Shown: positions 30,969-32,622 of the stretch, piece after piece
Numbering within the stretch: position 1 is the stretch's first letter
Layout of the letters: each line of letters opens with the position of its first letter
Source: Chloroflexota bacterium
GTDB lineage: Bacteria > Chloroflexota > UBA11872
Length of the DNA: 64,000 nucleotides
Direction of reading: 5' to 3'
NCBI GenBank assembly: GCA_965247475.1
Contig: OZ252016.1
Span: 982,087 to 1,046,086 of the forward strand
The notes under the pieces: generated by a model
Databases searched by the model: none
What the model was told of the DNA's origin: nothing
The model's input: the letters and a program-made list of their open reading frames with translations, nothing else
Program-made: the position numbers and the translations under genes

Positions 30969-32165
30969 GTGGTCAATACACAGTCGGTTGGTCGCGGCCG
31001 TCGGCGCCGGCTTTGGCCCGCTCCCGGCGTCGCCACTCTGTGGCTGCGCTTCGGAGCGTTAGCGGCCTTGCTGGCGCTTGCGGCCGCGCTCAGCGCGTCC
31101 TGCTCCCTCCCCTGGACTGTCATAGCGGGTGAACGCGGCGGTGCCGAGCTTCCGGGCGCTGTGAAGTCCACCCCCTCGACCGTGCCGGTCGTGCTCGAGC
31201 CCTCCGCACCCCCGCGACCCGCGCCCGGAGCGGCCGGACAGAACCCCACCTCCGACGAGGCGGCCGCAAGCCCTACTGGCTCGACCGCACCCGCAGAGCC
31301 GGTACCGAGAGTCGATTTCCCCGCCACTACGGCCTCTCCACCGGCCGGTGCGACTGCGCCGGTGGCGCCCGACTCGCCCCCGGGCGCCCCGCAGCCGCCG
31401 GCCGACGCGCCGGCCGCCGCCGAGCTTCCCAGTGAGCACGATTCGGCGCGCGACCAGGCCGTTGTGGAGTCAGTGCTCGCCCGCTCGGTCGAAGACCGCG
31501 CCATCCGCGTCGTGGAGTTGGGCCGCGGGCCGCTCTGGATCGCGCTCATCGGCGGCATCCACCAGGGCGACGAGTCGAACACCACCGACCTCGTCAACCT
31601 GCTGCTCGATCACTTCAGTCAGAACCTCGACGAGATCTCCGATGGGGTTGGTCTGGCGTTCATTCCCGACCTCAATCCCGACGGCGCCGCCGCGGGCACT
31701 CGCACCAACGCCAAGGGCGTTGACCTGAACCGTAACTGGGACGTCGGCTGGCAGGCTGACACCTTTGCGCTCTCCGGCCCGATCAAGGGCGGCGGCGGTG
31801 CGCGGCCGTTCTCCGAGCCCGAGAGCCGCGCGCTGGCGCGCTATCTGGCTGCGAGGCCGTTCGCGGCGGCGATCTTCTACCACAGCAAGGGCGGTGTAGT
31901 CGTACCCGGTGTGGCCGACGCGGCTGACCACGGCTCGGACAAGCTTGCGCAGACTCTCGCTCAGGCCGCCGGGTACATCTACCTGGCCGAGTGGACCGCC
32001 TATCCGGTTAGCGGTCAGGCCGCCGACTATCTCGCCGGGCTGGGCATCCATGCGGTGGACGTGGAGCTGAGCACGCACACCGACCCTGAGCTCGCGCGCA
32101 ACTTGCGCGGGCTGCGCGCCGCTGTCGAGTGGGTGCTCGCCAGCGCGCCGGCGGAGCCGGTCTGA
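30969..32165 (+). CDS. M14 family zinc carboxypeptidase-like lipoprotein
   Basis: Signal peptide/lipobox (LSASCS). A Pro/Ala-rich linker. M14 motifs NPDG and VDLNRNW. Confidence 0.8.
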   Translation: MVNTQSVGRGRRRRLWPAPGVATLWLRFGALAALLALAAALSASCSLPWTVIAGERGGAELPGAVKSTPSTVPVVLEPSAPPRPAPGAAGQNPTSDEAAASPTGSTAPAEPVPRVDFPATTASPPAGATAPVAPDSPPGAPQPPADAPAAAELPSEHDSARDQAVVESVLARSVEDRAIRVVELGRGPLWIALIGGIHQGDESNTTDLVNLLLDHFSQNLDEISDGVGLAFIPDLNPDGAAAGTRTNAKGVDLNRNWDVGWQADTFALSGPIKGGGGARPFSEPESRALARYLAARPFAAAIFYHSKGGVVVPGVADAADHGSDKLAQTLAQAAGYIYLAEWTAYPVSGQAADYLAGLGIHAVDVELSTHTDPELARNLRGLRAAVEWVLASAPAEPV

Positions 32166-32413
32166 GTCCCATTCGATGCGAGCGCGGCCGCGTGCGCGTT
32201 CCCGGCGGCGCCGGTCGCGGAGTCCAAGTTGACGAGGCCGCCCCGCGCCGATTGCGCTGCCGCCCGACCGGTCCCAAGCCCCTGCCGCGCCCATATACAG
32301 CATCCGCTGGGCTGATGGCCGCCTGGCCCAGTACACGTCCGTGCGCGCCTACGAGCGCGATTGCCTGCGCGGAAACTACCCGCTGTTCCAGCCCGGCGTG
32401 GGTCTCACGCAGG
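32139..32413 (+). repeat. Copy A of a roughly 275-bp repeat. It includes the last 8-9 codons of the M14 peptidase gene.
   Basis: About 93% identical to 34762-35036. The only differences in the last 120 bp are four substitutions, all at third codon positions of one frame. Confidence 0.7.
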
Positions 32414-32622
32414 CCGTCAATGCGGCGGGACCATCAGACTGGTCGGATTACCTGACCCTGGAAAATCCCGACACCTAGACCACGAACCCGTAGGCCCCCT
32501 TTGTCGGCTTGCGTAGACCAAAGGGCAACAAAAAAGACTGAGACGCTATAGTTCCTGTCTGCCGTGTATCCCCACGACGAGAGCGATGGCGATAAGCGTT
32601 TGAACAACGCTGCACTCCGAGG

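Follow-up and report, generated by a model that had tools for sequence, protein, structure and literature searches.

Two described kinds of structure are close to the locus considered here. One is the bacterial pseudogene remnant, in which a clade-wide truncating deletion is followed by lineage-specific frameshifts and deletions while codon periodicity persists. The other is the tandem duplication with a templated insertion at the join, which is ascribed to microhomology-mediated template switching (fork stalling and template switching/microhomology-mediated break-induced replication, FoSTeS/MMBIR) or to illegitimate recombination between sister chromosomes. We analysed a stretch of 64,000 nt from an uncultured Chloroflexota bacterium (contig OZ252016.1, positions 982,087 to 1,046,086; called the window throughout, with all positions counted from its first base unless a relative is named), in which a repeat of about 275 bp occurs twice between a gene for an M14 zinc carboxypeptidase and a gene for a sulfatase. 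From sequence comparison, it is highly probable that this repeat consists of the last 26 nt of the peptidase gene and a fragment of a destroyed gene of the MR/MLE family (enolase superfamily). In the original prediction the repeat was thought to carry a hidden conserved gene; with good confidence, we regard it instead as an ordinary gene remnant inside a duplication-plus-insertion structural variant. As such, the locus is a new instance of already known kinds. It has the features of pseudogene remnants named above in common with them, but differs in two respects: one stretch of 39 codons has so far undergone only synonymous changes, an uncommon feature in remnants, and the remnant is duplicated.

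Copy A of the repeat lies at 32140–32413 (274 nt, plus strand), with TC at 32137–32138, and copy B at 34761–35036 (276 nt, plus strand), where its right side runs on into ancestral sequence. These borders refine slightly the two copies of the original prediction. The copies are 95% identical, with 11 substitutions and two single-base indels between them; copy A lacks one base near 32172 and another at 32290, and copy B has five private substitutions within the repeat. A sensitive blastn search revealed no third copy in the 64-kb window. As had been noticed, copy A supplies the end of the M14 peptidase gene (30969–32165, plus strand; Pfam PF00246, E=1e-17), namely its last eight codons and the TGA stop at 32163–32165, and the same bases are present in copy B. 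The sulfatase gene (35110–36666, minus strand; Pfam PF00884) is convergent with the peptidase gene. Since it is encoded on the minus strand, copy B is located past its 3' end and not upstream of it, as had been supposed.

The identification of the remnant comes from a related Chloroflexota genome (L003), which was recovered by a search with the peptidase only, thus avoiding bias from the repeat-encoded peptide. Its peptidase is 90% identical to that of the window at the amino acid level and 92% at the nucleotide level. Directly downstream of this orthologous gene, L003 has an intact open reading frame (ORF) of 417 aa (6891–8144 of L003) that matches Pfam MR_MLE_C at 5e-27 and, in addition, MR_MLE_N. 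The 3' part of this ORF shows 84–86% nucleotide identity to both copies in the window. In tblastn, the L003 enzyme matched copy B over residues 310–398 (74% identity over 89 aa, E=1e-28), and copy A in two matches lying in different frames (32168–32338 and 32293–32490). The putative MR/MLE remnant in copy A extends over 32169–32413 (plus strand) and corresponds to residues ~310–391 of the 417-aa parent, with the frame broken by the 1-nt deletion at 32290. In copy B and just past it, the remnant extends over 34790–35056 (plus strand), corresponds to residues ~310–398 and lies within a 114-codon ORF at 34814–35158. Searches of Pfam and NCBIfam with the remnant ORFs returned no family.

The parent would belong to an uncharacterised MR/MLE subfamily of ~415–420 aa with a C-terminal extension. 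More than 1,300 homologues were found; those listed are mostly 394–426 aa long, with a query coverage of 94% or more, and the C-terminal extension is common to the subset that was aligned. Beyond the 99% cluster of the L003 enzyme itself, the next-best protein matches are 68–69% identical. Among solved structures, muconate cycloisomerases and other enzymes of the MR/MLE family gave the best matches; alignments with solved MR/MLE structures end at about residue 340, with one extending to 366. In the AlphaFold model, the extension is predicted to form an ordered hairpin-helix-strand-helix-strand subdomain (predicted local distance difference test, pLDDT, ~95). In agreement with this subfamily, the repeat encodes residues ~310–398, which cover the end of the MR_MLE_C domain, including the motif ...RVPxxPGLGVEVDE..., and most of the subfamily-specific tail. 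In contrast to the subfamily, the remnant keeps only ~21% of the protein. The capping domain at the N-terminus, the barrel that holds the catalytic residues and the final ~19 residues are missing, and the invariant L326 and S397 as well as the near-invariant F375 are replaced; it is a gene fragment and not a member enzyme. Nothing before residue ~310 survives in any of the nine loci of the remnant-carrying clade, the window included, which argues against a functional enzyme.

The peptide that first drew attention to the repeat (32296–32412 in copy A, plus strand; 39 codons, YSIRW...GLTQ) corresponds to parent residues ~353–391, the conserved C-terminal tail, and keeps the near-invariant family residues W357, G360, D374, G378, N379, P381 and V387. 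In the final ~120 nt of the repeat, the four differences between the copies (GCT/GCC, GAT/GAC, CTG/CTA and CGC/CGG) are indeed all third-position changes and synonymous in one frame, which encodes YSIRWADGRLAQYTSVRAYERDCLRGNYPLFQPGVGLTQ. Taken alone, this four-out-of-four pattern is weak evidence, having a probability of ~1% for a chosen frame in a region that was picked post hoc. The broader statement that the copies differ only synonymously goes too far: read in this frame, the upstream half contains seven further substitutions, six of which are non-synonymous, and copy A is frameshifted. Since L003 has an intact gene at the same position and the homology lies in the claimed frame, the coding frame of the repeat is inherited from the parent gene. 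The proposed hidden frame is thus a genuine coding frame, but one handed down from a dead MR/MLE gene that is intact in L003. Its coding-like appearance and the very high third-position guanine-cytosine (GC) content (0.67, 0.51 and 0.92 at codon positions 1, 2 and 3 of the tail) are a legacy of the parent. Selection on an ORF of the minus strand was ruled out, because CTA in copy B makes a stop and the other minus frames contain stops.

The fate of the remnant was compared across nine loci of the window clade, namely the window and the related loci L001, L002, L016, L017 and L021–L024, with extra alleles taken from ENA assemblies via protein-cluster look-ups. Peptidase orthologues are present in all eight relatives and in L003, and the sulfatase forms the right flank of the locus in every relative that carries the remnant. 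The eight related loci, which represent seven distinct alleles, have one remnant copy or less between peptidase and sulfatase, with a single copy in L001, L002, L016, L017 and L024. The junction between peptidase stop and remnant, a few bases after the stop, is identical in all nine loci. Hence, a single ancestral deletion of ~1.08 kb presumably removed the spacer and the first ~309 codons. Later lesions vary between strains. The frame is shifted by a 1-nt deletion in copy A and by -1 and +2 indels in L024, whereas L021/L022 lack ~222 nt and L023 lacks ~187 nt; each of these two deletions takes the whole tail, and they are independent. Among the replaced family residues, L326R is found in most alleles, F375C and S397G in all. 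An orthologous ORF of 117 aa is called in L001, L002, L016 and L017 (P0001, P0242 and P0243). The spacing from the peptidase stop to the remnant is 0, +1 or -1 nt among the alleles; read-through from or fusion with the peptidase was ruled out, because three alleles have three different phases after the stop. A longer remnant in L017 (residues 282–398) is probably a tblastn extension through error-prone sequence of 2x coverage.

In the proposed order of events, an intact 417-aa gene would have followed the peptidase gene, as it does in L003 now. One deletion of ~1.08 kb would then have fused the remnant to a point a few bases past the peptidase stop, and the extreme 3' end would have been exchanged in a further rearrangement that also introduced the sulfatase gene. 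Thereafter, the remnant would have decayed in a strain-specific manner by frameshifts and the two independent deletions.

The DNA between the two copies is a segment of 2,347 nt (32414–34760, plus strand; segment U) that is found only in the window and is absent from the same site in all eight related loci. Its GC content is 60.7%, compared with 67.9% for the window. U encodes an NCS2-family (xanthine/uracil-type) permease (32623–34365, plus strand; Pfam PF00860, E=1e-39) and a DUF1330 protein (34443–34730, plus strand; Pfam PF07045, E=2e-30). For the permease, the NCBIfam pbuX/ncs2 matches are under the family cut-offs, and its closest relatives outside the assembly of the window itself show 89% amino acid identity. 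Permease-DUF1330 modules homologous to U over 2.1–2.3 kb, with 87.6–89.7% nucleotide identity, are present in L014, L015 and L018–L020, where they stand in unrelated contexts within other metagenome-assembled genomes and DUF1330 is always paired with the permease. In exact-sequence look-ups, neither the DUF1330 protein of the window nor P0122 was on record. The left end of U (32414–32478, plus strand) corresponds to the last codons, with the stop, of a small ORF situated ahead of the permease in loci of the source type; in L019, this ORF ends with ...GDYALNPDT and a stop at the position homologous to the left end of U. By chance, this end continues the remnant frame as AVNAAGPSDWSDYLTLENPDT followed by a stop. 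The frame of copy A therefore seems to run to a stop at 32478, because the left end of U holds an ORF stub. Neither a transposase nor an integrase was found among the ORFs and Pfam matches of U, terminal inverted repeats are absent (the longest inverted match between the ends is 5 nt), and there is no second copy of U in the window.

Two details of the module itself were also recorded. The permease has a C-terminal extension of ~170 residues past the NCS2 domain, which Pfam places at residues 26–401 of 580. Upstream of the permease gene lies a leader of lower GC content (32452–32622), which shows ~88% identity, as part of the aligned module, to L015, L018 and L019. It contains a stem CCCTTTG...CAAAGGG at ~32495–32525 followed by an A-rich run, had no Rfam match, and may serve to regulate the transporter operon.

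At the right junction, the blastn homology of U to L014/L015 extends to 34767. The seven nucleotides CCAGCGC (34761–34767, plus strand) form a microhomology, being common to the source-type sequence past DUF1330 and to the 3' end of the peptidase gene: L014 reads ...GTCGTCTCCAGCGC followed by CTG, and the peptidase gene reads ...GTGCTCGCCAGCGC followed by GCC. At the left junction, the repeat-side sequence is ...CACGCAGG. In its outcome, the structure would match a tandem duplication whose join point received a long templated insertion. Judged by its anatomy, it is most readily attributed to template switching or to illegitimate recombination mediated by microhomology. Homologous modules elsewhere and empty sites in the eight related loci are in accordance with such a duplication. 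Because copy B starts with peptidase coding sequence, the single-copy state came first. As the last step, the window lineage would have gained a 2,347-bp chromosomal piece of lower GC content with the permease-DUF1330 module from another Chloroflexota-type locus, and the entry of this piece would have been accompanied by a duplication of 274 bp of the target.

As in duplications of the FoSTeS/MMBIR type, an insert whose sequence was copied from a different locus stands between the two copies of a 274-bp direct duplication, a microhomology of 7 nt is present at one junction, a recombinase and element ends are lacking, and the site is empty in relatives. In contrast to them, the insert appears to stem from another organism or lineage, since it is at most 90% identical to known modules and has a lower GC content. 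Natural DNA uptake and subsequent illegitimate integration may thus have taken place, rather than purely intrachromosomal template switching. Another strain provides an observation on the same site: a 228-aa ORF (P0275) holds the remnant with an allele resembling copy A and L017 together with a different insertion of ~110 codons of protein-like composition. This insertion begins a few codons after ...GLTQEEDEGGA, close to the insertion point in the window, and the locus may be a recurrent insertion site.

Direct target repeats around inserted DNA are also known from transposon target-site duplications and from the attL/attR sites of integrative elements. As a direct repeat on both sides of acquired DNA, the repeat could be taken for a mobile or structured non-coding element (a miniature inverted-repeat transposable element, MITE, an att site or an RNA gene), or for an artefact of assembly. 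We find this hardly credible. A duplication of 274 bp is far longer than those made by transposases, and U, which encodes only the permease and DUF1330, differs from transposable and integrative elements in lacking transposase, integrase, terminal inverted repeats and a tRNA target; the nearest tRNA gene (30750–30826) lies outside the repeat. The ends of U are ordinary chromosomal sequence, the left one being the stub of a neighbouring ORF and the right one an intergenic tail. The repeat occurs in two copies only in 64 kb and once or not at all per related locus, Rfam gave no match at E<=1 on either strand of 31500–35500, and the peptidase 3' end and the enzyme remnant account for the whole sequence. 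An artefact is further contradicted by the permease, which is found (100% over 549 aa) on a public contig of 2.71 Mb together with members of the peptidase and sulfatase clusters.

Comparison with the other strains indicates that most differences between copies A and B are alleles segregating among strains and not mutations that followed the duplication. The single-copy allele of L017 shows 98.9% identity to copy A (one mismatch and two one-base gaps), which terminates a contiguous L017-like haplotype block (31626–32413). Copy B has variants in common with L016 and L024. In the flanking genes, haplotypes of different strains form a mosaic. This pattern points to later homologous exchange between strains. 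Consequently, a comparison of copy A with copy B samples population polymorphism and not the divergence since the duplication. Error-prone repair was considered for the dense changes beside copy B and rejected, as most of 35078–35094 is common to the haplotypes of L024, L023 and L021. Just past the repeat on the copy B side, at 35062, a private in-frame deletion of 9 nt (CCGCGAGGT) was noted relative to L001, L016, L017 and L024.

The allelic nature of the copies would also be expected from a Campbell-type integration, in which a circle with U and one 274-bp segment from another strain recombined with the resident segment. The two copies represent different alleles, both of which are found in single-copy form in other strains, with the identity of copy A to L017 given above and 95.7–96.8% identity of copy B to every allele. 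Moreover, the mosaic flanks indicate that homologous exchange is frequent, and L001 and L002 contain a second insert of ~6 kb between direct repeats of 94–112 nt in the neighbouring intergenic region. However, this route needs a prior joining of U and the segment at exactly the same two breakpoints, which only moves the problem one step back, and a donor with this arrangement was not found. The 7-nt microhomology to the peptidase end, within which the right junction is located, is the mark of an illegitimate and not of a homologous join, and the allelic difference is equally explained by a later strain-to-strain replacement of 31626–32413, since the L017-like block ends at the junction. On balance, we consider a Campbell-type integration rather unlikely.

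It is very improbable that the state with two copies and U is ancestral and that the single-copy relatives lost U by recombination between the repeats. Direct repeats of 274 bp would readily mediate such a deletion, and all comparison genomes are close relatives, but a copy B that starts with peptidase sequence is sensible only as the copy of an existing junction between peptidase and remnant. The single-copy alleles are also not chimeras of a left part from copy A and a right part from copy B: L017 matches copy A up to the right end, and L001 alternates. In addition, U is missing in eight of eight related loci and is compositionally foreign. A duplication with templated insertion into a decaying remnant therefore remains the preferred explanation of the locus.

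Several observations weigh against this explanation and are considered together here. At the left junction, the first ~38 nt of U (32414–32451) are without a clear homologue, and the only match is a tentative (C)AGG to relatives of 88% identity. No sequence was found that could be the donor of U itself, nucleotide identity reaching 89.7% at best, and the one-step course of duplication and insertion is read from the anatomy of the locus only. Two of the assemblies have low coverage (2x for L017 and 4.5x for L016), and a few singleton variants may be sequencing errors. The remaining points concern the tail of the remnant, for which seven remnant alleles (copies A and B and five more) were pooled and changes were read in the ancestral frame. 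The 39-codon tail has six synonymous events and not a single non-synonymous one, and in the seven alleles all six affect third positions. In the 35 codons 5' of the tail, two synonymous and ten non-synonymous events were counted, and in the 29 codons 3' of it three and nine, respectively, plus an in-frame deletion of 9 nt. The combined flanks (5:19 over ~64 scorable codons) look neutral. The difference between tail and flanks (Fisher p = 0.0008) is not predicted by simple neutral decay, and a run-length permutation based on the longest synonymous run, which allows for the post hoc choice of the region, gave p = 0.003. The protein database contained no intact orthologue at 85–95% identity in genomes of the remnant clade. 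An import of synonymous variants from functional alleles is thus unsupported. Gene conversion from an intact paralogue was also judged unlikely, since the only paralogues seen have ~61–63% protein identity.

A tail that is still translated and under purifying selection, within an ORF of 114–117 aa starting from GTG at 34814 in copy B, would account for this pattern. The ratio of 6:0 as against 5:19 in the flanks, with all six changes on third positions, speaks for it, and third positions in the tail change at least as fast as the flanks do overall, so that ~10 changes at first and second positions are estimated where none was seen. An uninterrupted ORF is present in L001, L002, L016, L017 and copy B, the sole ORF indel of copy B being the in-frame 9-nt deletion. 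P0275, the allele of another strain, has an identical tail peptide, and in the parent enzyme the tail is part of the subdomain that is predicted to be ordered. Selection on the tail would mean that the β-hairpin, helix and strand of the parent's C-terminal subdomain live on in most strains of the clade as a small protein, born from the wreck of the MR/MLE gene and kept in copy B and in the single-copy alleles, an idea that we regard as improbable. The tail would nevertheless be dispensable enough for its loss in three sampled genomes. Two predicted tryptic peptides from the tail of the remnant ORF are AYERDCLR and GNYPLFQPGVGLTQ, the latter followed by an allele-specific extension.

Other evidence makes continued selection of the tail improbable. 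Two outright deletions, one in L021/L022 and one in L023, took away the tail, and in copy A and L024 it is disconnected from any canonical start codon. The remaining ORF is neutral and has lost invariant family residues, the final helix and strand of the subdomain are missing from the remnant, and the 3' end of the ORF is antisense junk overlapping the sulfatase gene. If mutation mainly hits G:C pairs, the chance of six out of six third-position changes rises to ~0.007 (own calculation, before correction for the choice of the region). A ribosome-binding site was not found, and a scan for consensus promoters and terminators yielded nothing in either copy. A word-indexed search of 5.8 billion proteins with the peptide returned only the clade's own ORF cluster P0001 (117 aa). 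In a full HMMER search of 1.84 billion representative proteins, the 12 matches were ORFs of the clade itself, full-length enzymes, fragments and low-complexity sequences; stand-alone homologues outside the clade were absent from this set, and the few short matches resemble gene fragments. A scan of JGI metagenomes with a 26-nt pattern from the most conserved stretch gave zero matches. A small gene would be expected to have a start and an open frame in all copies and relatives and stand-alone homologues in other lineages, and neither is seen here.

The original interpretation therefore stands in part. The third-position bias persists when five more alleles are added, and in the tail the substitutions are not spread evenly across codon positions. 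The flanks, however, are neutral, the tail was lost twice, and the ORF as a whole is interrupted by frameshifts in copy A and L024, so that the interruption which the original prediction had itself named as a refutation is present at that level. If the tail were selected after all, a functional mini-protein would have been recovered from a piece of an enzyme, a rare case in nature but an unlikely one on present evidence.

The neighbourhood of the locus varies among the strains as well. L002 and L017 lack, at the corresponding place, a segment of ~1.24 kb (29513–30751) with a DUF402 ORF (29754–30455, minus strand). In the window this segment adjoins a tRNA gene (30750–30826, minus strand), to which ARAGORN assigns an odd four-base anticodon (ccgt), and the region 29513–30826 may represent a small insertion next to a tRNA. 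On the other side, sister genomes contain an insert of ~6 kb between the sulfatase gene and a UxuA-like gene, with a giant ORF of 111-nt tandem repeats and a DDE_3 transposase. It is flanked by a direct repeat of 94–112 nt with 85–88% identity (11891–11984 and 17906–17999 in L001, 11894–12005 and 17903–18014 in L002), and the window has this flanking sequence once only, at 36695–36829. This second insert next door suggests that the gain of DNA with a long target duplication may recur in the lineage. In L021, an ORF for a group II intron-type reverse transcriptase/maturase (8325–10115; RVT_1, Intron_maturas2 and HNH) is located just past the sulfatase gene and is absent there in the window.

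For the search for ORFs, the locus calls for caution, since a clean coding-like frame in a high-GC intergenic repeat can be inherited from a gene that has been destroyed; one syntenic relative suffices to settle such a case. For this group of uncultured Chloroflexota, it offers an example of stepwise gene erosion, with one clade-wide truncation and at least three later independent lesions. The lineage of the window would, in addition, have acquired a foreign transporter module via an insertion that duplicated 274 bp of its target at a microhomology junction.

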